A DNA stretch of 64,000 bases from Gammaproteobacteria bacterium (GCA_035546635.1 DASZWJ010000034.1:70243-134242); one strand, 5' to 3'. Counted from the stretch's first letter, positions 9,999-52,988 are shown. Program-made: numbers and translations. The notes: a model not told the origin generated them from the sequence alone.

Positions 9999-10460
9999 TT
10001 GAAAAAGTTGTTAAGCGGCGTAGGTCGCGCATTTTTCCCTTTTCGCAATCCAAAGCGTATGGTTGGTTGGGATCAATTGCAAGAAAGCTTTAACAGCTTT
10101 GTGCGTGATCCAGCTAAAGAAGTATTGGGTCGCCGGAATAAAAAAACCAAAACCACTGAAACTTTTGAACAGGCGGTGACCCGCTTAAATATATCAGAAG
10201 AAGACCTCTCAGCCCGAAAAAAAACTTTTTTCCGAACGGCATTATTTTTTGTAGTAATGGCAGTTGCCTTGTTTATCTACACAGTGGATTTACTATTTTC
10301 TGGCCTATTATTAGCCACTTTTATTGCACTGGTATTAGTGGTTATTGCTTTAGCTTTAGCTTTTCGCGAGCATTTTTGGTATACGCAAATGCAACAGCGC
10401 CGCCTAGGAATCACTTTTAACGAATGGACTGGCTATACTTTTAGGGGAAATAAAAGATGA
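9999..10460 (+). CDS. icmV: Dot/Icm T4BSS inner-membrane protein IcmV (copy 1)
   Basis: 153 aa. The C-terminal half (VVIALALAFREHFWYTQMQQRRLGITFNEW) matches my memory of L. pneumophila IcmV (IALALAFRYHFWYFQIKERKLGCSFHEW). The start is TTG with a GAGGG RBS, and the stop overlaps the dotA ATG. Confidence 0.85.
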   Translation: MKKLLSGVGRAFFPFRNPKRMVGWDQLQESFNSFVRDPAKEVLGRRNKKTKTTETFEQAVTRLNISEEDLSARKKTFFRTALFFVVMAVALFIYTVDLLFSGLLLATFIALVLVVIALALAFREHFWYTQMQQRRLGITFNEWTGYTFRGNKR

Positions 10461-13210
10461 GTAGAACAGTAAAAAATTGTCTGATTTTCCTTGTGATGTT
10501 GTTGCCAGTTGCGGCATTTGCCGATAATTCTACCGGTTTACATCTCTTTACTGTTCCCACCAGTGATTTTTCAGTGAGTCTGCTAGAGCGCACTTTTGGC
10601 GCCGTGGGTAGTGTGTTACACGGTAAAGGCAATCAGATCGTTGGTTTGTTGCTCGGCATATTTAATGCCATGTGGGTGATTGTGATTGGTCTTGGTATTT
10701 TATTTCTGGTTTGGGATTCCGTTATGACTGCAGCGCATAGCGGTGAAATGATGCAAAGAAATGGCAAAAAAGCAGCGTTTACCATCATACGTATTGTGGT
10801 GGGTTTTTGTTTGGTAGTGCCAAGCAGCTCCACGGGTTATTCCATGGCGCAGACCGGTGTGGTGTGGGCGGTGGTGCAGGGCGTTGGATTGGCGGACGAA
10901 ATTACTGAAAAAGTGCATGATTATGCACAAGCAGGTGGACAAACTTTTACGCCAAAACCGTCAAGCGCTACCGAAATTGAACCGTTGATGAGCGTGGCTG
11001 CCGATATTCTTAAAGCTGAAGTCTGTATGTTTAAGGTACAGGATTTCCTAGATCAAAAGAAAAAAGAAGAAGACGAAGCATTAAAAGGAACTGGCGTTGA
11101 GCCAAACCCCCCTAGTGAATTTGATAAGATGGGTTATAGCATTAATGTTGGCACGACTTCAGGTAGTGTAACTTTTGGCAGCAAAAATCCAAATTATTCC
11201 CCTGATGATCCTACTACCGGCACTGAATATCTCAGTGACTGTGGTGAAGCCCATTGGAACTTAGTCCTGCCATTACCCGATGCCACTGAAAGCCAAGCAG
11301 CGAGTATGAAAAAAACGCTAGCTGGTTATATGCAAGCTGGCGTGACTGATTTAGTGGTGACTTTACAGCCCCTAGCCCGAGAATTGGCTTCTGCTGATTT
11401 AAGTGATACCGATGAAAATACTGAAAACTTTAAAAAGATAGCCGATAGAGCAGCTACCGCCATTGCGGGTGCGGGTGTTAGTTATACGACATTGATCGAT
11501 CCCATCAGAGGCGCCATAGCAATCACTGGAGAACAGGGTTTAAAAACTAGATTGACGCATTTGAATGAAAGGGGCTGGGTTTTCATGCCGATGATGGTTG
11601 TTGTGCCTGGACTATATTCAGTGGATTCGCTCAACATGGAAAGTTATATGCCGGCAGTCACACCGCCTAATCTGGTTCTCAATGAGCCGGCCAATAAAAT
11701 CAAAGTCTTAAGTTCAGAACAACGTCAAGAGATCATGGATGCCATAGTGCATGTGGAGACCGATAACTATGTCACCTTGGCTACTAATCAATTGAAATTA
11801 ATGGATACCAATAATGAATGGCCTAAGATCGATTTTAAAGCCATGTTCACTGTTGGAACACCTGATGGTAATTATATTAATAATTTAAGTGTTATTTTTG
11901 ATGGCACCCGGGAAATTATGAATGCTGGGCGCTTGGCGGCCAATGGTATGTTGGAGGTGCCTAAAGGCTTAATGCAGGGTATTAAGAGTATTGCAGATTT
12001 CTTTGTGGATGGATTTGACATTGGTGTCCCTGAGGTGTGTATTGGTGACCTGTGTGCCCCAGACATTAGTGTACACATTCCAGGTGTGGGTGGTGATACC
12101 AGCGGTTTGCAGAATGCTATCGATAAAATTAGTAACTTACAGAGCTCTCTGAATGATTCAGTCAATGGTGCCATCGGCAATTTAAATACGTTAGTGAGTG
12201 ATATTCAGAATAGTGCTACTTTAGCCGAGAAAGGCGGAATGACTTCTGAACTCATAGCATTGACAGGTCAGCTGGGGCCTTTAGGTCCGATGTATGCCAC
12301 CGTGATGACAGCCATGATTGGCAAGAGTATCACTAGCTTTGAGAATTATGTGTTTAGTTCAAATACTAACGCACTAGTCAGCTCCATTCAGTTGGGGGGC
12401 GACATGATGGTGGGCGCCATGAAGTCGGTTTTCCTGGGTGGTAAGATTATGTTTATCTCCACGCTGGTACAAGCGGGTATGAATGGTTTAAGCCAGATTG
12501 TTGGCATGATCCCAGGTGGAAAAGTAGTAGGCGGTGTGATGGATGTAGGCACCAACCTGGTGCATAAGGGTATTGAAAGCTTTACTGGTTTTCATATTGC
12601 CTTATCCCTTTTGATGTTTGCAGGTGGGGTGATGCTGTATTTCATGGTGCCACTGACTTTTATAGTCGCGTTTGCGTCGATTTGCTTGCGTTGGATTGGT
12701 ATGGTGTTAATTAACATATTAGCTGCGCCGATTTTTTGCTTTAACCTGATTCGGGCGGATAGTGAAGGTTTAGCTGGACGTGGGGAGCGTTTTCTCGGGG
12801 ATTTGGCGAAAACTGTGCTGACACCAGCTCTTTTAGCCATTGGTGCGATCGCGTTTGTCATATTGTTTAATATTGGATTTATGATTGTGACGACCGTGTT
12901 TAGTGCCTTTTTACCTATGCTGGCTAAAGCCTATAATTCCGCGATATTGATACCAGTAACATTAACACTGATATTACTGACATTTTCGGCGATGATGCTG
13001 TATTTAGCGACAACATTGTCTACTTTATGTACTACCGACTTTGTGAATCAGGTGACTAGTACTATTGGTGACACAATACAGCAGTTGCAAGATCAGCAGC
13101 CGACCCAGGAGATTCGCACCAGAATTCAAGAGGGCAGTCAGTATCCGACTGACAAAGTTAAAGGCATGGCCAGCGGTGGTAGCGGTATTATGGCGAAGGA
13201 TAAGCAATAG
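10457..13210 (+). CDS. dotA: Dot/Icm T4BSS polytopic membrane protein DotA (copy 1)
   Basis: 917 aa with a signal/TM segment, a large central periplasmic region and a C-terminal cluster of TM helices. It is translationally coupled (ATGA) to icmV, as in known icmV-dotA operons. Confidence 0.85.
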   Translation: MSRTVKNCLIFLVMLLPVAAFADNSTGLHLFTVPTSDFSVSLLERTFGAVGSVLHGKGNQIVGLLLGIFNAMWVIVIGLGILFLVWDSVMTAAHSGEMMQRNGKKAAFTIIRIVVGFCLVVPSSSTGYSMAQTGVVWAVVQGVGLADEITEKVHDYAQAGGQTFTPKPSSATEIEPLMSVAADILKAEVCMFKVQDFLDQKKKEEDEALKGTGVEPNPPSEFDKMGYSINVGTTSGSVTFGSKNPNYSPDDPTTGTEYLSDCGEAHWNLVLPLPDATESQAASMKKTLAGYMQAGVTDLVVTLQPLARELASADLSDTDENTENFKKIADRAATAIAGAGVSYTTLIDPIRGAIAITGEQGLKTRLTHLNERGWVFMPMMVVVPGLYSVDSLNMESYMPAVTPPNLVLNEPANKIKVLSSEQRQEIMDAIVHVETDNYVTLATNQLKLMDTNNEWPKIDFKAMFTVGTPDGNYINNLSVIFDGTREIMNAGRLAANGMLEVPKGLMQGIKSIADFFVDGFDIGVPEVCIGDLCAPDISVHIPGVGGDTSGLQNAIDKISNLQSSLNDSVNGAIGNLNTLVSDIQNSATLAEKGGMTSELIALTGQLGPLGPMYATVMTAMIGKSITSFENYVFSSNTNALVSSIQLGGDMMVGAMKSVFLGGKIMFISTLVQAGMNGLSQIVGMIPGGKVVGGVMDVGTNLVHKGIESFTGFHIALSLLMFAGGVMLYFMVPLTFIVAFASICLRWIGMVLINILAAPIFCFNLIRADSEGLAGRGERFLGDLAKTVLTPALLAIGAIAFVILFNIGFMIVTTVFSAFLPMLAKAYNSAILIPVTLTLILLTFSAMMLYLATTLSTLCTTDFVNQVTSTIGDTIQQLQDQQPTQEIRTRIQEGSQYPTDKVKGMASGGSGIMAKDKQ

Positions 13211-13248: not shown

Positions 13249-13282
13249 AACGGAAAGAAAATTGATTATTGAGGGTAGTTCC

Positions 13283-13744
13283 ATGAAAAAACTGTTTACT
13301 GGCCTAGGTCGAGCGTTTTTCCCATTTCGCAATCCTAAGCGTATGGTGGGCTGGGATCAGTTAAAAGACAGCTTTAACAGTTTTGTGCGTGATCCTGCGA
13401 AAGAAGTTTGGGATCGTAAACAAAAAAGAGTTGTGATCAAAGAGACTTTTGAAGAAGCATTAGTGCGTTTAAATCTCTCGGAAGAAATGGTGGTTGAGCG
13501 TAGAAAAACGTTTTTGCGCACAGCTCTGTTTTTCGTGGGGGTAGCACTAGTATTGTTTGTGTACACAATGTATTTGCTGTTTTCAGGGTTGTTTTTGGCT
13601 ACCTTTATCGGATGTGTTTTAGTAGTGATTGCGTTGGCTTTAGCATTTAGAGATCATTTTTGGTATACACAAATGAAACATCGTCGTTTGGGTCTGAGCT
13701 TTAGCGATTGGGCGAACTATACGCTGGGGAGAATAAAAAAATGA
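13283..13744 (+). CDS. icmV: IcmV paralog (copy 2)
   Basis: Same 462-nt length as copy 1 and the same upstream ttattgagggtagtt RBS region. The sequence (MKKLFTGLGRAFFPFRNPKRMVGWDQL...) is highly similar to copy 1. Confidence 0.85.
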   Translation: MKKLFTGLGRAFFPFRNPKRMVGWDQLKDSFNSFVRDPAKEVWDRKQKRVVIKETFEEALVRLNLSEEMVVERRKTFLRTALFFVGVALVLFVYTMYLLFSGLFLATFIGCVLVVIALALAFRDHFWYTQMKHRRLGLSFSDWANYTLGRIKK

Positions 13745-16389
13745 CCAGAATAGTAAAAAATTGTTTCATTGTTCTCTTGATGCTGTTGCCGGTCGCGGCA
13801 TTTGCTGATATTTCCAGTCTGAATTTGCATTTCTTCACGCCACCACAAGGTGATTATTCAGTTAGCCTTTTAGAGCGAACTTTTGGTGCTGTCGGCAATG
13901 TTTTGCATGGCCGGGGTAACCAAATCATCGGTATTGTTCTTGGTGTTTTCAATGCGGTGTGGGTCATTGTGATTGGCCTTGGTATTTTATTTGTGGTATG
14001 GGATACCGTGATTACTGCGGCACAAAGCGGAGAAATGATGCAGAGTCGCGGTAAGAAAACGGTATTTACGATTTTGCGTATTGTGATGGGTTTCGCTTTG
14101 GTAGTACCGAGTAAAGCCACTGGATACTCCATGGCGCAGAACGGCGTAGTATGGGTCGTAGTCCAAGGCGTGGGTTTAGCAGATCAGATTACGCAAAAGT
14201 TACATGATTATTTGCAGGCAGGAGGTCAGACTTTTACTTCTAAACCTTCTACCTCTGCGGATACAAACTTTTTAATGCCGATTGCAGCTAATGTGCTTAA
14301 GGCTGAGGTCTGCATGTATAAGTTGCAGGATATCGCAGATGAAAGAAAAAAATTACGCGATGAAGCGTTAAAAGAATCAGGAAGTTCCACTGATGCCGGT
14401 AGCGAACTGGCTAAGATTGGTTATAGCATTAATGTAGGTGAAAATTCGGGGAATATTACTTTTGGCAGCAAAAACCCGGCGTATAGTCCTAATAAAGCGG
14501 GTGAACCTGAATATCTCAATGATTGCGGGCAAGTTGACTGGGATGCTAGTGCGGTTGGCCTGCCAATGGCGAGTGATGCTGAAAGAGTGAGTGCCCGGAA
14601 AACGCTAGCGGGTTATATGCAAGCGGCTGTCACTGAAATGGCGTTGAATTTGCAACCTGTAGCCAGAGAGCTGGCTTCTCTTAATTCGAGCGATACCACT
14701 AGCGCAGATTCTATAGCGCAAAGAGCCGCAACTGCGATGGCAGGTGCTGGCACTAGTTTTGCCACATTACTTGACCCACTGAAAAAAGCGGTTGCAGTGA
14801 GTGCAGAGACCGAACTGAAAAATTCGTTGACTACGCTGAACAACAGAGGGTGGATTTTTACCCCGATGATGGTTATAGCGCCTGGGTTATATAATTTGAC
14901 CTCAATAAAACTCTCCGATTATGCGCCTGCTGCTAAATTGACGGATATTGGCAGTTCTACCATCGGTGTGCTTAAAGAGATAGATGGAACCGAAAAACAG
15001 CAGATAATCACGGCAATGGCGAAAGTGGATGCCAACTACGTTAGCAAAGCGAATGAGTATTTAAAGCTGATGGATGACAATAGTCAGTGGTCGGGTATTG
15101 ATTTTGCCGCACTGTATACAGGTACCCGCGATGCGAGTTATCTCGAGCATCTTAATGGTATATTTGATGCGACTAAATGGTCTTTGGACGCGGGTGCAAC
15201 TGCGGCCGCAGGTTTATTAGAAGTACCTAAGGGTGTAACAGAGTTTTTTAAAGACGTAGGTGATTTTTTTGATGCCGATACTTCAAAGTTACAAAATGGC
15301 ATAGATAAAATCACATCAGCACAGCAAAGTGTCCGTGATATGGTGGGTAATGCCAGTGGTAACTTGGATGCCTTGGTTGATGACATTCTAAGTGCTAAGG
15401 ACTTGGCGGTAAAAGGTGGTATGACTACGCAACTGCAGGATTTAACAGGTCAATTGGGTCCTTTAGGTCCGCTTTATGCGACGATTATGACTGCTATGAT
15501 TGGCCGGAGTATGGAAAGTCTGGAAGGTCATTTGTTTAACCCGAAATTTAATGCCATGGCCAGTTCTATTTATGTAGGTGGCGAGATGATGGTGTCGGCT
15601 ATGGAGTCGACTTTCCAAGCGGGTAAGATTCTGTTTGTTGGGACATTAGTTAAAGCTGCTGTGGATGGTTTGAACCAGGTGGTGAGCGCTATTCCTTATG
15701 TCGGCGGTGCTGTTGGCGGAATTGTGAGTATAGGCTCCAATCTGGTCCATAAAGGTATTGAGACTTTTTCGACCTTCCATATTGCGCTTTCAGTGATGTT
15801 ATTTGCCGGTGGTGTGTTGTTATATATTGTAGTGCCGCTGACCTTTGTGGTGGCGTTTGCTGCAATTTGTTTGCGCTGGATTGGTATGGTGATGATTAAT
15901 GTCCTGGGTGCGCCTATTTTTTGCTTTAACCTAATCCGTTCAGATGGTGAGGGGATGATAGGACGCGGGGAAAGGTTCTTGGCTGATCTGGCTAAGACGG
16001 CATTAACTCCGGCGATTCTAGCAATTGGTGCTGTGGCCTATTTGACGCTGTTTAATATTGGTTATTTGTTGATTACCTCCATTCTATCAGAATTCTTGCC
16101 GATGTTGGCTAAAGCGTATAATGACCCGATTTTAGTACCGGTGTCGCTAGCTGTGATATTAATGGTATTTTCGACCTTAATGGTGTACATCTCGCAGACT
16201 TTGGCTAATTTGTGTACTGCGGAGTTGGTAAACCATGTGACCGGTACCATTGGGGATACCATACAGCATCTGCATGATCAGGGTGTGGTTGAGCAGATGA
16301 AGGGTAGCGTGACCAAAGGCAGCGATAAGATGTCGGGCGGCATAAAGAGCATGACCAGCAGTGGTTCAGGTATGGGGCCTAAGCTATAG
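13741..16389 (+). CDS. dotA: DotA paralog (copy 2)
   Basis: 882 aa from ATG 13741, with the same ATGA overlap with icmV as copy 1. It is collinear with copy 1 (MTRIVKNCFIVLLMLLPVAAFA vs MSRTVKNCLIFLVMLLPVAAFA; C-terminal FCFNLIR..GRGERFL.DLAKT conserved). The reading frame is intact. Confidence 0.85.
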   Translation: MTRIVKNCFIVLLMLLPVAAFADISSLNLHFFTPPQGDYSVSLLERTFGAVGNVLHGRGNQIIGIVLGVFNAVWVIVIGLGILFVVWDTVITAAQSGEMMQSRGKKTVFTILRIVMGFALVVPSKATGYSMAQNGVVWVVVQGVGLADQITQKLHDYLQAGGQTFTSKPSTSADTNFLMPIAANVLKAEVCMYKLQDIADERKKLRDEALKESGSSTDAGSELAKIGYSINVGENSGNITFGSKNPAYSPNKAGEPEYLNDCGQVDWDASAVGLPMASDAERVSARKTLAGYMQAAVTEMALNLQPVARELASLNSSDTTSADSIAQRAATAMAGAGTSFATLLDPLKKAVAVSAETELKNSLTTLNNRGWIFTPMMVIAPGLYNLTSIKLSDYAPAAKLTDIGSSTIGVLKEIDGTEKQQIITAMAKVDANYVSKANEYLKLMDDNSQWSGIDFAALYTGTRDASYLEHLNGIFDATKWSLDAGATAAAGLLEVPKGVTEFFKDVGDFFDADTSKLQNGIDKITSAQQSVRDMVGNASGNLDALVDDILSAKDLAVKGGMTTQLQDLTGQLGPLGPLYATIMTAMIGRSMESLEGHLFNPKFNAMASSIYVGGEMMVSAMESTFQAGKILFVGTLVKAAVDGLNQVVSAIPYVGGAVGGIVSIGSNLVHKGIETFSTFHIALSVMLFAGGVLLYIVVPLTFVVAFAAICLRWIGMVMINVLGAPIFCFNLIRSDGEGMIGRGERFLADLAKTALTPAILAIGAVAYLTLFNIGYLLITSILSEFLPMLAKAYNDPILVPVSLAVILMVFSTLMVYISQTLANLCTAELVNHVTGTIGDTIQHLHDQGVVEQMKGSVTKGSDKMSGGIKSMTSSGSGMGPKL

Positions 16390-16407: not shown

Positions 16408-16588
16408 ATAGGTATCTACATAAATAGTTAGCCCCCCCTTCTCCCCTTGTGGGAGAAGGTGCCCGTTAGGGCGGATGAGGGGTAAGTCTGCAGTATCTAC
16501 TTAACTTCTCAACTTAAAAGCCAACTCAAACTTATCCCACAAGGGGAGAAGGGGAAGGGATTTTCTAATTACTTGTGTAGATACTTAT
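16408..16588. repeat. Long imperfect palindromic element (same family as 48485-48630)
   Basis: The arms are ataggtatctaca...ccttctccccttgtgggagaagg and cccacaaggggagaagg...tgtagatacttat, and the centre (aagccaactcaaact) is shared with 48485-48630. It lies between the convergent dotA copy 2 and dotB. Confidence 0.75.
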
Positions 16589-46305: not shown

Positions 46306-47019
46306 ATGGGTCAAAAATACGATATGCGTCGAAAATACACTAAAAAAGTGCTGGTCACAGATGAGAATTCAACGCCGGAGGCTAGGGCAGAACGGCTGAA
46401 ACGTGTGCGGAATATGGCTAATTTAACGCGAGAGCAAATGTGTCATGATGGTGCTATTAACATCAATACTTATAAAGGATGGGAAGTGGCGCGTTATGGG
46501 GGGTTACCGGTTGATGGTGCTGAAAGGGTTGTGGTGCGAGTGCGGCAGGAAGGGGTGGTTTGTACAGCAGATTGGTTGCTATATGAGATAGGGGTAGGTC
46601 CTTATGTGATACCCGATTACAAAAGCGCTGCTGAGAAAGGTGGTAAACAGGCTTATGTGGTACCGGATAATGAAGAACAATTAATCACCAATGAATTATT
46701 GTTATTCAGAAAACAGTTTCCCGATGTGATTATTTACACTATCGAAGATGATGGTTTAAGTCCAATATTTGAGCCAGGTGATTTTGTCGCAGGTATTAAG
46801 TTGTTTGCAGATAATATCCATAAGGCGCTTAATAAAAATTGCATCATTCAAACGCAAGAGGGCAAGGTGTTGGCCAGAAAACTGCAGGAGGGCTCTAAAG
46901 CCGGTGTGTATATGTTGACGTGTTCTAATATTTATACTACTACCAAAATGCCAGTGCTTTATGATGTAGCCATTGTGAGTGCGGCACCAATTATTCGTTG
47001 CTATAAAAAAGCGTTATGA
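46306..47019 (+). CDS. CI/LexA-like repressor (XRE HTH plus S24 peptidase-like C-terminal domain)
   Basis: The HTH is ERLKRVRNMANLTREQMC. The C-terminal DDGLSPIFEPGDFVAG and EGKVLARKL resemble S24 Ser and Lys motifs. The start site is uncertain; the ORF opens at TTG 46279. Confidence 0.55.
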   Translation: MGQKYDMRRKYTKKVLVTDENSTPEARAERLKRVRNMANLTREQMCHDGAININTYKGWEVARYGGLPVDGAERVVVRVRQEGVVCTADWLLYEIGVGPYVIPDYKSAAEKGGKQAYVVPDNEEQLITNELLLFRKQFPDVIIYTIEDDGLSPIFEPGDFVAGIKLFADNIHKALNKNCIIQTQEGKVLARKLQEGSKAGVYMLTCSNIYTTTKMPVLYDVAIVSAAPIIRCYKKAL

Positions 47020-47225: not shown

Positions 47226-48380
47226 ATGCAAGATGATGCAAAAGAAATTGAATTAGAAAAGATAGCAGACCTAGATGCTAGAGGTTTAGAGCGTCTAATA
47301 GACAATATGGATTGTCATCAATTTGCACATTTTAATAAAGCAAAAGCTCAGGAACAAATTGAGCGTTATCGTCAAGACTTGTTTGCCGCAATTAATATAA
47401 GACTAGAACATAATCCTAGCGCCCAGTTTCATTTAAAAGCTAAGTTTCTGAGCAAAATTAGTGATTTTTTTCATGATCGTGGTTACGATGGCCTCTTGGA
47501 GAAAGATCAATATTTTCAACTAGGCATGCGAAAACTTGTAGAAGCTTATGGAAAGGATACCCTCCGCATGCCCAGTTCGCTTACAATTCGTGGAACTGGA
47601 GAGCAAGCTGAAAACTTTAGAATATTGGGCAAGTCTATAGATTCTTGGCTTAAACCAGATACATTTCTAAAATCAGATACAAATAATAGTTCTAAAAGTT
47701 TTGAAGAAGATTACCCGCGCGTAATTAATACTATTAAACACTCAGGGTTAACGGATAGCCAACAATATTATTTATCACTGAAGGCACTCTTAGCCCGCAA
47801 TGAGGTTCAAAAAACATCAGGTGTTTCTGAGAAAGAAGCAACTGAACAGTTAAGTAAAGGCTGCGATCAGTTAATAAGACGATTCAGAGATGTGCCAAAG
47901 ACTAGTTTTTCCGTTTGTAACTCATTTTTAAAAGACCAACCTAAGCGTGATGTTAGCGATACACCATTATCGTCCCGATCGAGTACAACGGGCACTTATG
48001 CTCGCATACAGAGCGCAACGTCCTCAAGCAAAGAACAGCTTTTGTCTAGTATGGCTGCAGCTCGAACACGTGGTAAGGCCAAATTAAAAGAAGAAGAGGC
48101 GGCAGAATTGGTTGCGTACTCAGCTGAGCGTTCTTCTCCTGACTCTTATAAGGACATGTTTAAGGCCGCAATCGAAAGCTCTCTACTCAGTTATGAACGG
48201 GAATTTAAAGATAGAATAACTAAAGAGATTGCTTCATCATCATCACCGAATGAGAGCGAAACTAAGCAAATAACAGCAAAGGTCAAATCAGAAATGGAAG
48301 AAAAAAGACGATCAGCGACTTGGATGGCGCCTGATACCGAAGAGTTAGTTAATAGCCCGTCTTCTCTTTCAAGAAATTGA
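47226..48380 (+). CDS. Hypothetical protein; candidate Dot/Icm effector
   Basis: A 384-aa orphan with no recognisable domain. The C-terminal half is Ser-rich and charged, the tail (EEKRRSATWMAPDTEELVNSPSSLSRN) has Glu residues and small polar residues, and a PmrA-type box lies upstream. Confidence 0.4.
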   Translation: MQDDAKEIELEKIADLDARGLERLIDNMDCHQFAHFNKAKAQEQIERYRQDLFAAINIRLEHNPSAQFHLKAKFLSKISDFFHDRGYDGLLEKDQYFQLGMRKLVEAYGKDTLRMPSSLTIRGTGEQAENFRILGKSIDSWLKPDTFLKSDTNNSSKSFEEDYPRVINTIKHSGLTDSQQYYLSLKALLARNEVQKTSGVSEKEATEQLSKGCDQLIRRFRDVPKTSFSVCNSFLKDQPKRDVSDTPLSSRSSTTGTYARIQSATSSSKEQLLSSMAAARTRGKAKLKEEEAAELVAYSAERSSPDSYKDMFKAAIESSLLSYEREFKDRITKEIASSSSPNESETKQITAKVKSEMEEKRRSATWMAPDTEELVNSPSSLSRN

Positions 48381-48484
48381 TCTATTATCTCAGAATAGTG
48401 TGGTGGATTTAGATACAAAGTGCAATTCCTTTTTTCCACAAGGGGGAAAGGTAGTGCTTAACCATATCATTACCCATAAATAGG

Positions 48485-48630
48485 CACTACTCCTTCTCCC
48501 CTTGTGGGAGAAGGTGCCGAAGGCGGATGAGGGGTGAGCCTGTTATGGCAATTCAACTCAAAGCCAACTCAAACTCACCCCTCATCCGCTCTAACGGGCA
48601 CCTTCTCTCACAAGGGGAGAAGGAGTAGTG
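48485..48630. repeat. Long nested palindromic element (about 57-bp imperfect arms)
   Basis: The arms are cactactccttctccccttgtgggagaaggtgccgaaggcggatgaggggtgag and its near reverse complement. The centre (aagccaactcaaact) is shared with 16408-16588. Confidence 0.85.
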
Positions 48631-48644
48631 GCTAGTACACACAT

Positions 48645-49628
48645 TTATCTATCGCTCAAGTAAGCCTGAAGCGTACCAATATCTTTGCGCCGTAAACTAA
48701 AGTCTTCTTTCTTAATAATCGCACTGAAATATTGACAGTTATTAAAACTGAAAGAGTTTGCAATGGGAAAAATATAATTACCCCATAGTGAAACGGGTAG
48801 TTTTTTTTCTATTTCAGAGAAGAGAAATAAAAGATGGGTTTTCGTTTCTAATTTTTTAAGCACTTCAATGTTTTCTTTATGGTATTTGGCCACGTCTATA
48901 TCTTGTTGTAGCTTATCCATGCTCTTTATAACTAGCCAATAATTATGACCGGCTTTATCTAACGCCAAGTAACTGCCGGAGACATCCAATTGGTAGTATT
49001 CCACTATATTATTTTGTTTGACAAATTGCCTGAATAATTTCAAATAATCTTGAGAAGTTTTCAGTGTATTTTGCGGATCACCCTGCAAGGAGTTAGAGAT
49101 ATCTGAGAAATAGGCTAAGCGCATTTTTTTAATGTATTGATTGACTTCATCAAAAACATGGGTGGCATCTTTGGGTACAAACGCATCAATAATATCGTGA
49201 TTAAGAGATTTCACAGCAATCTCATAACTGGCGTCGCCAGTGAGCATAATTTTTTTTATACGAGAGTTGGAGATTTTTTTACAGAATTCAACACCATTCA
49301 TTTTTGGCATGGTGTAGTCGACTATGGCAATAGAGATATTGTTAAATCTCTGTTTTTGATAAATAAAATTGGATAGTTTACTGTAGTCGATTTTTTTTAG
49401 TGGATTTTCATCATCGTATTCATTGGAATTCACAAAAGTTGCTAAAGAAGATAAATCTTCAAAGACATTATTATTTTTGCTTAAAGCTTCTAAAGCGGCA
49501 TGTGGGTTATCAAATATTATCACAGAAGCACTTTCATCTAAGGCTGAGCTGAAGTTTTCTAAAAAGCTTTGGTTGTCATCGACTATTAAAATATCAGTTG
49601 GCCAGTAAAATAGGGGTGCTGTTTCCAT
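48645..49628 (-). CDS. Atypical response regulator: receiver domain with a large insertion plus an uncharacterised C-terminal domain
   Basis: ILIVDDNQSF is the acidic pocket. The putative phospho-acceptor Asp lies in IAIVDYTMPKMNG near residue 104, after a roughly 50-aa insertion. FVPKDA holds the conserved Lys. No DNA-binding motif is recognised in the last 170 aa or so. Confidence 0.6.
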   Translation of the reverse strand: METAPLFYWPTDILIVDDNQSFLENFSSALDESASVIIFDNPHAALEALSKNNNVFEDLSSLATFVNSNEYDDENPLKKIDYSKLSNFIYQKQRFNNISIAIVDYTMPKMNGVEFCKKISNSRIKKIMLTGDASYEIAVKSLNHDIIDAFVPKDATHVFDEVNQYIKKMRLAYFSDISNSLQGDPQNTLKTSQDYLKLFRQFVKQNNIVEYYQLDVSGSYLALDKAGHNYWLVIKSMDKLQQDIDVAKYHKENIEVLKKLETKTHLLFLFSEIEKKLPVSLWGNYIFPIANSFSFNNCQYFSAIIKKEDFSLRRKDIGTLQAYLSDR

Positions 49629-49642
49629 TTTAGTACCTTGGA

Positions 49643-49936
49643 TTATGAATTTGAGATGGGTTTGTTTTTTAAATGAGCAACCGTAACATCTGCCAAGAGA
49701 TTTAAATTGTTTATTTCTTTTTCGCTATTTTCCAGCAGCTTAGTTAGGATAGCTAGGTGTCTTTCAGGTATTTCTTGAGAGATGCGGAGGTTTGGTTTGG
49801 AAGCTTTATAGGCTTCGATCAATGTGGGTAAATATTTTTTGACACTGTTTATCCCTGCGCTAGTGGTTACTAGTGAAGTTTTAAGGTCATGAATAAATTT
49901 TAGCCAGGTGTTTTCTGGATTTTCAATTATCGGCAT
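49643..49936 (-). CDS. Stand-alone DHp/HisKA-like protein (97 aa), possible histidine phosphotransferase
   Basis: Its H-box-like KFIHDLKTSLVTTSAGI parallels LAHDIRSPLAAL of the neighbouring kinase. There is no ATPase domain. It is encoded between the binding protein and the response regulator. Confidence 0.45.
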   Translation of the reverse strand: MPIIENPENTWLKFIHDLKTSLVTTSAGINSVKKYLPTLIEAYKASKPNLRISQEIPERHLAILTKLLENSEKEINNLNLLADVTVAHLKNKPISNS

Positions 49937-49961
49937 CAGGACCTTGTGAATGTGAATATAT

Positions 49962-49985
49962 TCACCCCCTTTGCAAAGGGGGTGA
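49962..49985. repeat. Perfect 24-bp palindrome tcaccccctttgcaaagggggtga
   Basis: It is exactly self-complementary and lies in the intergenic space between the SBP gene and the 97-aa gene. Confidence 0.8.
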
Positions 49986-50006
49986 CGGTTTACTTAGGTA
50001 TGATTT

Positions 50007-51056
50007 TTAATGTGTATACTGCCTATTATTAAATTTCAATTTAAAAAACTTCCATGCCTGATCCATAGAATCAAAGTCCGTCTCATTGACGCGGCTATTT
50101 TGCCACCTTAGTTTGGGCAAAGCAATGAAAAAACTTTCCACAAAGTTTTTCATGGTGGGACTGGATATGCTGGTTAAGTCTTTATAAGGTGATATATACA
50201 AGGCATCATTTTGCATTTTGCTGAGAAATTCTTTGCCAGCCATCACATTGGCTACACAAACAGTTGCAGGGTTATTGTTCATTGTGGCTAAAAGATCGGC
50301 AGAAATTAGAGATAATTCTGGGTGAATCAAGTAACGGTAATTTTTATATTTATTGTCTATGGCATAAATAGCAATGCCTGGCCAGGTATAGGCAAAGGCA
50401 AAATCTGATCGTCCGTAAATATCATTCAGTTCATTAGTTAAAAATAATTTTGAATTTTTACTGAGATTTTCAAATTTTTTCAACTCGGCCATTTTATCGA
50501 TATTTTCTACATTTGTATTGAGCAGATAATAAACAAACATGGGGTCATCAATCATCACAACCGTGTTAGAGCCAGCTTTTTTAAATAGAGTAGAAATTGA
50601 GTCAGTATCAGAGAGATTTATGACTTTAGGATTCCATAAAAATCCTTCAATATTGAGCTGGAAGTATACGACATTGTGGGCATAATTTTGTTTTTCATAA
50701 TTGGCTCTGACATTTTTTTCATAAGCTTTGGTGTTTTCGAATAGTTTGCTAGTATTTTTGGTGAGCTGTTTGGCAAACATTTGATAGTCAATATTGGGAA
50801 ATATCACAATATCGTATTGGGTATTATGTTCTCGAAATCTACGGATAAATTCATCATTGGTATAATATTCGTCGTAGGAAATATTGACGTGACATTGGTT
50901 CATAATCATTTCATGTACCCAGGGGCTGGTTAAATAACCCCACCAGGTCAGTATATTGACTGGGGGGGTGCTGGGGGTTGATAGGGCGAGTAGTGGTGAA
51001 ACTAGAAAAAGACAGAAGATGAAAAGTTTCGCTAATATAATGAGAGGTTTAATCAT
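50007..51056 (-). CDS. Periplasmic PotD/PotF-like solute-binding protein without cognate ABC permease or ATPase
   Basis: A signal peptide is present. NILTWWGYL, YDIVIFPN, VVMIDDP and AYTWPG line up with PotD motifs as I remember them. Confidence 0.6.
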   Translation of the reverse strand: MIKPLIILAKLFIFCLFLVSPLLALSTPSTPPVNILTWWGYLTSPWVHEMIMNQCHVNISYDEYYTNDEFIRRFREHNTQYDIVIFPNIDYQMFAKQLTKNTSKLFENTKAYEKNVRANYEKQNYAHNVVYFQLNIEGFLWNPKVINLSDTDSISTLFKKAGSNTVVMIDDPMFVYYLLNTNVENIDKMAELKKFENLSKNSKLFLTNELNDIYGRSDFAFAYTWPGIAIYAIDNKYKNYRYLIHPELSLISADLLATMNNNPATVCVANVMAGKEFLSKMQNDALYISPYKDLTSISSPTMKNFVESFFIALPKLRWQNSRVNETDFDSMDQAWKFFKLKFNNRQYTH

Positions 51057-51089
51057 GAAAACTCCAGTTTTTATTGTTGATGTGACAGC

Positions 51090-52988
51090 TTAGAACGGCG
51101 GTTCTTTGCCGACTATTTCTTTAATCCAATACATGTCTTTAAATTGACTTTTCTCAAAACCTGTCGTCAAATACAGGTTTTGATAACCTTGTTCAAATAA
51201 TTGTTTAGCTAATATTTCTCCGCGCATATCTTCAGAAAGGTAAGAGTCTATATAAATAGGTGTGTTTTTTGCATAATGTTTAATTGCTTGCAAAAATTCC
51301 TCTACGCGATTAAAAGTCATTACCTGTTTCCCACGCAGCTCGCCTTGTAATTTCCAGGTTTCAGTTAAAACTTTATTGTCATCTAAAATGATGATGGGTT
51401 CTTCAGTTGCGGGTTGAGCTGGTTGAAATTTTATGGCAATGGGCAGTGTGATGCTAATGGTGGTGCCTCGAGTTTCTTCAGATTCAATGGCTAATTGTCC
51501 TGACCATTGATTGATACATTTTGTGGCATGTGATAATCCCATGCCATGACCTTCAGGTTTAGTGCTAATGCCATCGTTTAGTACTTTATTTAGCAAATCG
51601 TGTGACATCCCACAACCATTATCTGCGATGATAATTTTAATGGTATCTGTATCTGAGATTAAACTGATATGAATCTGGCCTTTTTCTTTTAGTGATTCAA
51701 CAGCATTATCCAATAAGTTAGAAATGACGCGCTTGAATTCTGAGGGATTGACATTAACTGCAATTTTAAGAGCATGGGGTTGAAAATTGAGATCAAAGTG
51801 AACGGTTTTATAATTGAATTGTATTTTCTTTTCAAGAACTAAACTTTCAATAATGGGTGCAATTACTTCAGGTTGCGTTGTGGTTAGAGCGGTGGTGTTT
51901 GTGGAAATGCTCTTTGGAGAACGCAATAAATTATTGGCTATGTCATTAATACGTAGCACGACATGCTGGATTATTTTTTTTTGTGTTTGGGTAAACCCAG
52001 ATAGATCTTGGACTATGGTTTGTAATGCGGCCAGCGGTGAGCGGATATCATGCGCCAACTGTGATGCAATGCGTCCAATTTTCGCTTGTTGCTCACTGGT
52101 TAAAGCCGATTTATATTTTTCTTGCCAGCTAATTAATTCATTAGCGAGATAAGCTACTTCTTCAATAGGATACTCCACTTTGCGCAAGCCATCGCCGGAT
52201 TTTAATGCAGTATTTAAAGTCATTAGTGGGGAAACGATATATTGTTGCGTAAGATAGTTGACGCGGCGCCGGTTCCAAAAGGCGAATATAATGAGGGCTA
52301 AAAATAATAATCCTATATCATAAAATATTAACCACTCTAATTGTTTGGTAATTTCAAGGTTAAGTTTCAAGCCGGTAGAAGACAGGATAGGAAAAGTGCC
52401 AAACGCTAAGTGTTTATCGATAAAGTCAATAGGTGTACATTTTGGACAATGATTGAGATTTAATTGAGATTTCAGCAAGGATTTTTCTAACAGGGCTTTA
52501 TTAAAATATAAGGTTAATTGATACTTGCATTGACCGAACTGGGTATTGAGTAAGTTGCCGAGATAACATAATTTTAAAGTGACATTATCAGGACTTACTG
52601 TTCCATCTTGGAAGGAAATACTTTGAAACAAGTTATTACTATCTATATCCTGAATTTTTATCCCTTCAATGCCGCCGCTGAAATCTTTTAAAGTTTCCAG
52701 TAAAGATAGAAAATCAGGTAGAGTAGCGGTTTTGGTGCGTTCTCCAGAGTGCAGATAATCTAAAAAAATCGGTGATGAAGCGATGATGCTAATTTTCTCG
52801 GAGAGTTGTGATTGATAAGTGGCAAATAGGCCTAGCAAAATATGATGATTTAGATATTGTTTATTGAGTTGAGATTTGTAATTGAATACACTCAAAACTA
52901 AGGTGGCTAGACAAAATATAATGACTAAAGGTAAAAGCGCTATCTGATTAATAGATTTTTTTATATCACTTATGTTATGAATACCCAT
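51090..52988 (-). CDS. Hybrid sensor histidine kinase (periplasmic sensor, HisKA, HATPase_c, degenerate C-terminal receiver)
   Basis: Two TMs flank a periplasmic region of about 190 aa. The H-box is QLAHDIRSPL, the N-box NLLDNAVESL, and G-boxes are DNGCGM and GHGMGL. The C-terminal IIILDDN...IYIDSYLSEDMRGE is receiver-like. Confidence 0.8.
   Translation of the reverse strand: MGIHNISDIKKSINQIALLPLVIIFCLATLVLSVFNYKSQLNKQYLNHHILLGLFATYQSQLSEKISIIASSPIFLDYLHSGERTKTATLPDFLSLLETLKDFSGGIEGIKIQDIDSNNLFQSISFQDGTVSPDNVTLKLCYLGNLLNTQFGQCKYQLTLYFNKALLEKSLLKSQLNLNHCPKCTPIDFIDKHLAFGTFPILSSTGLKLNLEITKQLEWLIFYDIGLLFLALIIFAFWNRRRVNYLTQQYIVSPLMTLNTALKSGDGLRKVEYPIEEVAYLANELISWQEKYKSALTSEQQAKIGRIASQLAHDIRSPLAALQTIVQDLSGFTQTQKKIIQHVVLRINDIANNLLRSPKSISTNTTALTTTQPEVIAPIIESLVLEKKIQFNYKTVHFDLNFQPHALKIAVNVNPSEFKRVISNLLDNAVESLKEKGQIHISLISDTDTIKIIIADNGCGMSHDLLNKVLNDGISTKPEGHGMGLSHATKCINQWSGQLAIESEETRGTTISITLPIAIKFQPAQPATEEPIIILDDNKVLTETWKLQGELRGKQVMTFNRVEEFLQAIKHYAKNTPIYIDSYLSEDMRGEILAKQLFEQGYQNLYLTTGFEKSQFKDMYWIKEIVGKEPPF

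Follow-up and report, generated by a model that had tools for sequence, protein, structure and literature searches.

The 64,000-nucleotide stretch of DNA analysed here (hereafter the window), from a Gammaproteobacteria bacterium (GCA_035546635.1, DASZWJ010000034.1:70243-134242), contains a minus-strand operon at positions 48645-52988 whose four genes encode a hybrid sensor histidine kinase (HK), a periplasmic solute-binding protein (SBP), a 97-residue protein carrying a kinase-like histidine box (P97) and a response regulator (RR). RR almost certainly belongs to the LqsR family. Judging from its homologies, P97 is very probably the dimerization and histidine phosphotransfer (DHp) domain of an LqsS-type kinase existing as a protein of its own, and a partnership between SBP and HK is likely. 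In our estimate there is an even chance that the four products would make up a single phosphorelay, running from SBP through His313 and Asp581 of HK and His16 of P97 to Asp104 of RR.

Calling of open reading frames (ORFs) recovered the four co-oriented genes with exactly the boundaries given in an earlier note on this DNA, which had been made from the sequence alone. The gaps between them are short, as the note had said, namely 33 nt (HK-SBP), 70 nt (SBP-P97) and 14 nt (P97-RR). The impression that the operon is richer in AT than the flanking core genes is borne out by the GC content, which is 0.336-0.360 in the four genes versus 0.447-0.467 in the adjacent transketolase and 6-phosphogluconate dehydrogenase (6PGDH) genes and a window mean of 0.428. 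Comparison with an 82%-identical relative (L085; loci fetched from other sequences are referred to by L numbers) gives dN/dS values of 0.04-0.16 for all four genes, which indicates purifying selection. It could be argued that the cluster is a functionless remnant of the regulatory region of a mobile element, since it forms an AT-rich island, related modules are found on conjugative plasmids, and L085 has a transposase-like gene in a variable slot together with a frameshifted HK gene. With four intact ORFs, the dN/dS values just given and conserved catalytic residues, we regard such decay as extremely improbable.

The response regulator is a full-length homologue of LqsR

RR (48645-49628, minus strand; 327 aa) was compared with the sequences of solved structures using phmmer. 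The sole strong full-length match is PDB 6sy9, an entry titled 'Response regulator' (E=7.7e-40), in which residues 26-349 of the chain align with residues 4-323 of RR in a single stretch at about 30% identity. The N-terminal sequence of 6sy9 is near-identical to that of a regulator from Legionella maceachernii (L015) whose gene is flanked by those of an LqsS-like kinase and an LqsA-like aminotransferase, and the acceptor aspartate of 6sy9 falls at the position of LqsR D108 once a tag of about 20 residues is allowed for. A search for papers by the PDB code 6SY9 found none; the structure is taken to be that of LqsR because its sequence and synteny match the L. maceachernii lqs cluster. Members of the RR family are also found inside canonical lqsS-lqsR-lqsA clusters (L015).

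The Pfam receiver match in RR is split in two (residues 13-53 and 94-154) by an insertion of about 40-50 residues (about residues 54-93), which is a family trait in an alignment of 29 homologues. The active-site residues are DD17/18, the acceptor Asp104, Thr130 and Lys153. Among the 29 homologues, Asp104 and Lys153 are invariant, and Asp17 and Thr130 are nearly so. The earlier note had described both the interrupted receiver and its acceptor correctly, and its placing of the LqsR acceptor near residue 108 agrees with the published D108 of LqsR, the prototype of a regulator family of its own (PMC3376566). The resemblance to LqsR, which the note had offered as a loose one, turns out to be genuine homology that extends through the C-terminal domain. 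The note's view of that domain as an unknown output without any recognisable motif has to be given up: residues ~170-327 constitute an LqsR-type output domain, for which a solved structure exists and in which a degenerate GGDEF-like motif, SGSYL, occupies positions 217-221. No function was assigned to this domain in PMC3376566, and the domain has later been described as a degenerate GGDEF-like fold with a five-stranded sheet (PMC10653808).

In a scan of GTDB representative genomes with a narrow alignment of RR homologues, the best match was 35%, and these genomes do not include the species of the window. It should be noted that clustering of lqsA and lqsS with lqsR has been stated to be conserved (PMC3376566). 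No lqsA homologue is present in the window, and the RR gene does not lie in an lqsA/lqsS cluster. This is a feature of the context and not of the RR protein, and PhcX, another member of the family, is also without such a cluster. We place RR in the LqsR family with near certainty.

P97 is a stand-alone DHp protein of the LqsS lineage

P97 (49643-49936, minus strand) has the H-box IHDLKT, with His16 as the candidate phospho-acceptor, and the kinase-like box that had been pointed out before is therefore present. The protein matches no Pfam or NCBIfam model, and the Hpt profile gives no match at E<=1; its comparison with PDB sequences yields noise only. Its relationships became apparent in the fetched loci, where tblastn and phmmer align it with residues ~200-285 of kinases of 430-450 aa (E down to 2e-9) whose genes immediately precede lqsR homologues. 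We consider these kinases to be LqsS-type because they contain HisKA and HATPase_c domains and are located with LqsA-like aminotransferases. P97 also matches the N-termini of 258-261-aa proteins devoid of transmembrane (TM) segments (E ~1e-11 to 1e-12; L003, L004 and L011), whose genes are flanked by those of a hybrid kinase and an LqsR-like regulator on 'Coxiella sp. DG_40'-type and other Legionellales contigs. The DHp domain of HK does not match P97. Residues 200-268 of L. maceachernii LqsS likewise match P97 and not HK, and LqsS matches HK only in the catalytic and ATP-binding (CA) domain. The earlier statement that neither an LqsA- nor an LqsS-like gene is present in the window holds for LqsA and only partly for LqsS, of which P97 appears to be the lone DHp domain.

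A word-indexed search returned 3 relatives of P97, and 242 (E<=1e-3) emerged when 1.84 billion representatives were searched exhaustively with a profile. By size, the relatives form three classes: stand-alone proteins of 78-125 aa, proteins of ~230-280 aa with an N-terminal DHp domain, and proteins of LqsS size. All three ATP-binding motifs (N, G1 and G2) are kept by 19 of 28 members of the LqsS-size class and by 5 of 42 members of the TM-less 230-280-aa class, in which 17 of 42 have none. The stand-alone class, with 31 members among the top 150 relatives, has no CA domain at all. His16 is invariant in these members (31/31), where it lies in a box of the form H-x-[LI]-[RK]-T-[PS] followed by a conserved YLPxLIxAY. 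Two other identities were considered and rejected: a pseudogene fragment of lqsS, on the grounds of the dN/dS of P97 (0.16 against L085), the invariant histidine and the wide family of the same size; and an Hpt domain, for want of a profile match.

In all five loci with context (the window, L085, L086, L087 and L006), the small gene lies directly upstream of a gene for an LqsR-like regulator, and P97 is thus genetically tied to RR. Contexts of further stand-alone DHp genes were sought in two metagenome scans, neither of which yielded any.

The size classes also bear on whether P97 could act as one half of a split kinase, with the CA domain of HK or of another kinase phosphorylating His16 in trans and P97 passing the phosphoryl group to RR, so that the receiver of HK is bypassed. 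P97 is a complete DHp with a kinase-type H-box, and intermediate members of its family have partly kept CA motifs. Against this, the H-box of HK itself is intact and its receiver is conserved, and the loss of ATP-binding motifs in most of the 230-280-aa members points to a role other than that of a kinase; we find trans-phosphorylation improbable. We put forward, tentatively and at somewhat short of an even chance, that the P97-type proteins of ~90 aa are a previously undescribed group of minimal, DHp-only histidine phosphotransferases. They would have arisen from LqsS by stepwise loss of the membrane sensor and of the ATPase domain, with all three stages extant, and would have rewired LqsR-family regulators away from the sensing of autoinducers and towards binding-protein-gated hybrid kinases, with analogous modules on conjugative Legionella plasmids, including those of L. 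pneumophila.

The hybrid kinase ends in a divergent receiver

HK (51090-52988, minus strand; 632 aa) was delineated from its ORF, Pfam and NCBIfam matches, hydropathy and motifs. Two hydrophobic segments, TM1 (residues 9-39) and TM2 (residues 216-239), enclose a periplasmic domain and are followed by a linker, a DHp domain, a CA domain and a C-terminal receiver. HATPase_c is matched at E=1.8e-20 and NCBIfam kinase models at E=3e-33. The HisKA match (residues 305-355, E=0.002) is below the gathering score. His313, in the H-box AHDIRSP (codon at 52050-52052, minus strand), is the predicted site of autophosphorylation according to the Pfam HisKA alignment and the position of the motif, and the CA motifs are located at residues 424-429 (N box), 456-461 (G1) and 480-485 (G2).

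The C-terminal 108 residues of HK have no Pfam match, Response_reg included. Within them we recognise a receiver, REC-B (residues 532-632; 51093-51395, minus strand), by its active-site residues, an AlphaFold2 model and Foldseek. The residues in question are DD536/537, the acceptor Asp581, Thr608 and Lys628. Homologous C-termini are found in eight other Legionellales sequences, namely seven hybrid kinases and one stand-alone ORF of 114 aa (L016), and the DD pair, the acceptor aspartate (in IYID), the threonine or serine and a Lys-x-Pro-Pro are conserved in all of these. When REC-B was aligned by hhalign with a small alignment of classical receivers, the motifs came out in register with a weak score. 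In the single-sequence AlphaFold2 model (pLDDT 75.5), strands and helices alternate as they do in a receiver, with a reduced alpha4/alpha5 region, and almost all of the model's top 50 PDB matches in Foldseek are receivers (TM-score 0.41-0.61, mostly 0.5-0.6; E ~3e-3). According to PMC9981736, intermediate receivers in hybrid kinases have reduced helices but keep the whole active site; because REC-B fits this description, we consider it a short, divergent but probably competent receiver. Of the earlier picture of HK, the hybrid architecture stands; the periplasmic loop measures ~176 residues instead of about 190, and the receiver is not degenerate, as Asp581, the DD pair, Thr608 and Lys628 have all been kept.

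Tandem receiver-like domains, REC-A followed by REC-B, are present in the kinases of L003, L010, L011, L018, L080 and L089. The window HK has REC-B alone, and those of L088 and L090 have REC-A alone. Either receiver of the tandem pair can evidently be lost.

The binding protein co-occurs with a private sensor domain

SBP (50007-51056, minus strand; 349 aa) begins with a signal-like hydrophobic segment (residues 1-30) and is predicted to be secreted. Neither Pfam nor NCBIfam gives a match at E<=1, and PotD sequences in the PDB are matched weakly (E ~0.02-0.03). Its family comprises 16 clusters in a collection of 5.8 billion sequences, none of which has a precomputed Pfam domain. An AlphaFold model built from the family alignment (pLDDT 90.3, pTM 0.85) finds PotD, PotF, SpuD and SpuE as its best PDB matches in Foldseek, filling at least the top 20 places (E ~1e-14, TM-score 0.61-0.69, 13-17% identity). 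The assignment as a PotD/PotF-type binding protein, already made in the earlier note, is supported by the fold, and it stands without a match to a sequence model and without co-located potABC or potGHI genes. The conserved residues WWGY, W225 and D254 loosely recall the polyamine-binding box, and the ligand is possibly an amine or a polyamine-like compound. GNAT genes near some SBP/HK modules were considered as a further pointer to polyamines and were rejected, their NCBIfam matches being non-specific.

In 5/5 contexts (the window, L085, L088, L089 and L090; 37-82% identity), a gene of the SBP family adjoins that of a histidine kinase. In L089 and L090 the two genes overlap or abut, and L090 has two tandem copies. 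The periplasmic sensor domain of HK (residues ~40-215; 52344-52871, minus strand), for which there is no Pfam match, has homologues only in the kinases of L085 (81%) and of L088, L089 and L090 (30-35%) and in no other fetched locus; related hybrid kinases at other loci align with HK from the cytoplasmic part onward only. As this orphan binding protein strictly co-occurs with a private kinase sensor domain, we propose that HK is an SBP-dependent sensor, as had been suggested before, with the periplasmic domain as the putative docking site. The sequence comparisons make the SBP-HK partnership likely.

As for transport, SBP might instead serve an ABC importer encoded elsewhere, in which case its place in the operon is incidental and HK senses something else. 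The fold is that of the transport proteins PotD and PotF, and our inspection for ABC genes covers 64 kb of the genome. Within the window there is indeed no ABC gene and no ORF with both Walker A and LSGGQ in a motif scan, which agrees with the earlier remark that SBP has no ABC partner nearby, and no permease or ATPase gene occurs in the contexts of L085 and L088-L090. The unbroken adjacency of overlapping or abutting genes, the restriction of the HK periplasmic domain to kinases accompanied by the SBP family, the failure of that family to match any Pfam model of transport binding proteins, and the existence of analogous modules in which other types of binding protein are paired with related hybrid kinases all run counter to transport, which we hold to be very improbable.

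A proposed phosphorelay to an LqsR-type output

From the domain identities, homologies, conserved residues, gene neighbourhoods and purifying selection described above, we infer the physical interactions, the phosphotransfer steps, the ligand and the output of the pathway. SBP, in its ligand-bound or ligand-free form, would dock on the periplasmic domain of HK and thereby set the autophosphorylation of HK at His313. The phosphoryl group would then pass from His313 to Asp581 of the kinase's own receiver. A histidine carrier is called for at this point, because the receiver of HK has all the active-site residues and a receiver fold and the operon encodes no Hpt (no operon protein matches the Hpt profile, PF01627, at E<=1). 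P97, which probably forms a homodimer with a four-helix bundle as Spo0B and ChpT do (PMC3433190), would take over the phosphoryl group at His16 and hand it to Asp104 of RR. P97 presumably still recognises the RR receiver, as it descends from the kinase cognate to that regulator. Finally, RR would act via its LqsR-type, degenerate GGDEF-like domain, maybe together with F3, a neighbouring helix-turn-helix (HTH)/S24-like protein (see below). The His-Asp-His-Asp relay that the earlier note had envisaged is plausible, given a catalytically complete HK receiver and a predicted DHp protein with an invariant histidine.

Several points weigh against this scheme. The assignment of REC-B depends on a single-sequence model of moderate confidence and on weak profile matches, and a profile search of REC-B against the PDB was not significant. 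The HK ortholog of L085 lies in two overlapping frames (326 and 292 aa; L085 1869-3777), which reflects either a frameshift or an assembly indel. A strong hairpin between the SBP and P97 genes could uncouple their expression. SBP-HK pairs occur without a nearby RR gene in L088 and L089. The linkage of stand-alone DHp proteins to regulators is drawn from five loci, and ~30 other stand-alone DHp clusters lie outside them. Moreover, P97-RR pairs are found without an adjacent hybrid kinase in L086 and L087, so that the link between HK and P97 is weaker than that between P97 and RR.

In addition, P97, bearing H-D-x-x-T, could be a phosphatase instead of a carrier, as this motif also supports phosphatase activity in HisKA kinases. 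The principal competing explanation builds on this: P97 would be a phosphatase, a phosphate drain or a DHp-mimic modulator, His313 of HK would phosphorylate RR directly, and the HK receiver would be an internal sink or regulatory domain. The H-D-L-K-T of P97 fits the phosphatase motif of HisKA kinases, H-E/D-x-x-T/N; DHp domains on their own, such as that of EnvZ, can dephosphorylate their cognate regulators, and the pairs of L086 and L087 manage without an adjacent hybrid kinase. The invariance of the histidine in 31/31 stand-alone members, however, is what one expects if this residue accepts phosphate, whereas phosphatase activity does not strictly depend on it, and the kinases of the RR clade nearly all have C-terminal receivers, an arrangement that normally demands a histidine carrier. 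Since the DHp domain of HK is not LqsS-like, its direct recognition of an LqsR-type receiver is also not to be expected a priori. For these reasons we judge a phosphatase or modulator role unlikely, though worth keeping in view, and retain P97 as the candidate carrier.

Related modules and a candidate output partner

In a neighbour-joining tree of 90 LqsR-like sequences, drawn without support values, the clade that includes RR never has lqsA. Its members are associated with REC-B hybrid kinases, with a small His-box protein and with an HTH/S24-like protein. The small protein is of the P97 type, of its 260-aa form, or of an unrelated type of 72-75 aa, and the co-occurring kinases nearly all carry C-terminal receivers. 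In the window the HTH/S24-like protein is F3 (46279-47019, plus strand; 246 aa), encoded convergently with RR, which has a weak Pfam HTH_19 match and homologues that match HTH_3 and Peptidase_S24. Homologues of F3 are found in 17 of the 20 RR-clade loci, the window included, among them the plasmids pLELO and pLlyPCM2298_2. F3 is a candidate downstream partner of RR.

Members of the RR clade are located on Legionella plasmids. The pLELO-type conjugative plasmid (~150 kb) occurs in L. pneumophila, L. longbeachae, L. sainthelensi and L. anisa, and its module (L091; NC_018141.1 140863-150432) consists, in order, of the regulator, a 75-aa hypothetical protein, a 'HAMP domain-containing sensor histidine kinase', an 'ABC transporter substrate-binding protein' that is Peripla_BP_6-like, a hydrolase and the S24-like protein, with csrA nearby. 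Lying close to csrA and to hypothetical genes in the regulatory region of the plasmid, this LqsR-like module might control plasmid functions such as transfer. A further module is on a 136.5-kb plasmid of L. lytica, which is typed as non-mobilizable and on which no binding-protein gene is annotated. Modules in which other binding proteins are encoded upstream of REC-B hybrid kinases, together with a small His-box protein and a clade-related LqsR-like regulator, are present in L. steigerwaltii, in L. anisa and on pLELO. The window operon is therefore one instance of a recurring architecture, in which the binding protein and the small histidine protein differ.

In L010 (6309-7184, minus strand), a His-box protein of the pLELO 75-aa type is fused to the Pfam 'Putative cyclase' domain (PF04199). 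This combination of domains is unusual; the fusion gene adjoins that of an LqsR-like regulator, and a second, weaker His-box-like match overlaps the PF04199 domain.

Genomic neighbourhood and host

The AT-rich stretch continues past the operon to ~45.7 kb and contains, in addition to the 246-aa F3 gene, a 384-aa orphan gene and a 135-aa LuxR/GerE gene. The 384-aa ORF (47226-48380, plus strand) has a Ser/Glu-rich C-terminus, no Pfam match and no homologue in the fetched loci. It occupies a variable slot between RR and F3, which is filled in L085 by a PDDEXK_2 transposase-like gene, and it could encode a lineage-specific secreted effector in a genome that bears Dot/Icm genes (see below). The LuxR/GerE-type regulator (45728-46135, minus strand; Pfam GerE, E=4e-10) has a GC content of 0.319 and lies at the island's edge. 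Small genes of this GerE kind accompany related modules in L003/L004, L085 and L001, often with csrA.

A scan of the window for promoters and terminators gave background levels only. Two inverted-repeat elements were noted. The AT-rich SBP-P97 gap contains a perfect 24-nt palindrome, TCACCCCCTTTGCAAAGGGGGTGA (49962-49985, no strand assigned), which occurs once in the window, where chance would give 0. Its 10-bp GC-rich hairpin has no clear U-tract on the mRNA strand and may act in attenuation within the operon, in RNA stability or as an operator. Directly downstream of the RR stop codon, between the convergent genes for RR and the 384-aa protein, is a GC-rich nested inverted repeat (48481-48634, no strand assigned) with arms of 38 nt (95% complementary) and 27 nt. 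A 16-mer of this element recurs near 16471-16486, upstream of a DotB-like gene, and the element is probably a bidirectional terminator or a REP/MITE-like element.

A Dot/Icm-type type IVB secretion cluster extends over positions 16610-37456 of the window. It encodes a DotB-like T2SSE ATPase, a DotC-like T4SS_TraI protein, a TraG-type coupling protein and a DotG-like protein with Decapeptide and TrbI matches, as well as a 1005-aa ORF that has no Pfam match. From this Dot/Icm-like cluster the organism is Legionellales-like, and, the window sequence being present only in soil-metagenome DNA runs, the host is an uncultured Legionellales-type bacterium. A gene pair is duplicated in tandem at 9999-13210 and 13262-16389, each copy encoding a membrane-like protein of 153 or 160 aa followed by a protein of 917 or 893 aa. 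The N-termini are near-identical between the copies, and the large protein has a weak T4SS_pilin match.

Comparison with known systems

None of the operon's components is of a new kind: RR is an LqsR-family regulator, HK a hybrid kinase and SBP a binding protein with a PotD fold, and P97 would follow the logic of a kinase-derived phosphotransferase; the rewiring of an LqsR-family regulator has a precedent in PhcX. Three features appear to be undescribed in the literature that we searched, namely: the stand-alone LqsS-type DHp family, a search on stand-alone or DHp-only proteins having returned nothing relevant; the private pair of binding protein and sensor domain; and the recurrent module of binding protein, hybrid kinase, small histidine protein, LqsR-like regulator and HTH/S24-like protein, including its Legionella plasmid versions.

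The closest points of reference are the Legionella quorum-sensing components LqsA-LqsR-(HdeD)-LqsS/LqsT. LqsR of L. pneumophila governs the replicative-to-transmissive switch, virulence traits and competence. RR resembles it over its full length, in the inserted receiver, the D108-equivalent aspartate and the LqsR-type output (PMC3376566), and P97 is homologous to the DHp domain of LqsS around the phospho-histidine, which is H200 in LqsS. In contrast to the Lqs system, the window has neither the autoinducer synthase LqsA nor the six-TM sensor LqsS or LqsT. Its input consists of SBP and a two-TM hybrid kinase with, as proposed, an extra His-Asp step, and its RR belongs to a separate clade with an HTH/S24-like neighbour. 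The gene contexts suggest that this Legionellales clade of the LqsR family, plasmid copies included, is fed by hybrid kinases, most of them with a binding-protein gene directly upstream, and not by the LAI-1 sensor LqsS. The conserved HTH/S24-like neighbour is a concrete candidate for the long-sought output partner of LqsR-type regulators.

PhcX of Ralstonia solanacearum is likewise an LqsR-family regulator of the same architecture that lies outside an lqs cluster and is attached to another input, the Phc system (PMC10653808). Unlike RR, it is encoded beside the phc quorum-sensing genes, and descriptions of that locus mention no binding protein, hybrid kinase or DHp protein standing alone. Among Legionella homologues outside the lqs cluster, those on the plasmids pLELO and pLAI01-117 were listed by Herran et al. 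2021 as 'cheY-like' and outside conserved regions, and their neighbours were not analysed (PMC8023197). Such non-cluster homologues belong to the same broad clade as RR. The pLELO module has a 75-aa His-box protein, a hybrid kinase with REC-B, a binding protein and an S24-like gene beside the regulator, as does the window in its own form, but its binding protein is Peripla_BP_6-like and not PotD-like, and its His-box protein is of a different family from P97.

On the input side, LuxQ and TorS are, like HK, hybrid kinases that feed phosphorelays. Their binding proteins, LuxP and TorT, represent a different structural class of SBP, and LuxU and the Hpt domain of TorS differ from P97 in being monomeric Hpt bundles and not DHp domains. 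Gating of a membrane signalling protein by a non-transport periplasmic binding protein is common to LuxP/LuxQ-LuxU-LuxO, TorT/TorS-TorR, NspS/MbaA and, as we propose, the window system (PMC8050422, PMC5646818, PMC8079147); binding-protein-dependent kinases have been reviewed (PMC8050422). The PotD-like NspS signals through MbaA (PMC5646818, PMC8079147), which, in contrast to HK, is a GGDEF-EAL protein and not a kinase. Unlike the components of these systems, the SBP family and the HK periplasmic domain match no described family, and the pair would represent a new, compact and experimentally tractable case of binding-protein-dependent sensing.

The nearest counterparts of P97 are the kinase-derived phosphotransferases Spo0B of Bacillus and ChpT of Caulobacter, in which a histidine on a DHp-like hairpin takes phosphate from an intermediate receiver and delivers it to a terminal regulator, and which arose from kinases by loss of catalysis (PMC3433190, PMC9981736). 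Judged by its homology to LqsS-type DHp domains, P97 has, as they do, a DHp-like region with a conserved histidine. It differs in stopping at the end of the DHp, without the C-terminal CA-like alpha/beta domain that both have kept, and in that no sequence relationship links them, P97 being of the LqsS/CqsS lineage. A ChpT-like intermediate is provided by the P97 relatives of 258-261 aa, which have a degenerate CA-like domain (L003, L011). If its members are true carriers, the stand-alone LqsS-type DHp family would comprise the smallest kinase-derived phosphotransferases known and would lay out the path from kinase to carrier.

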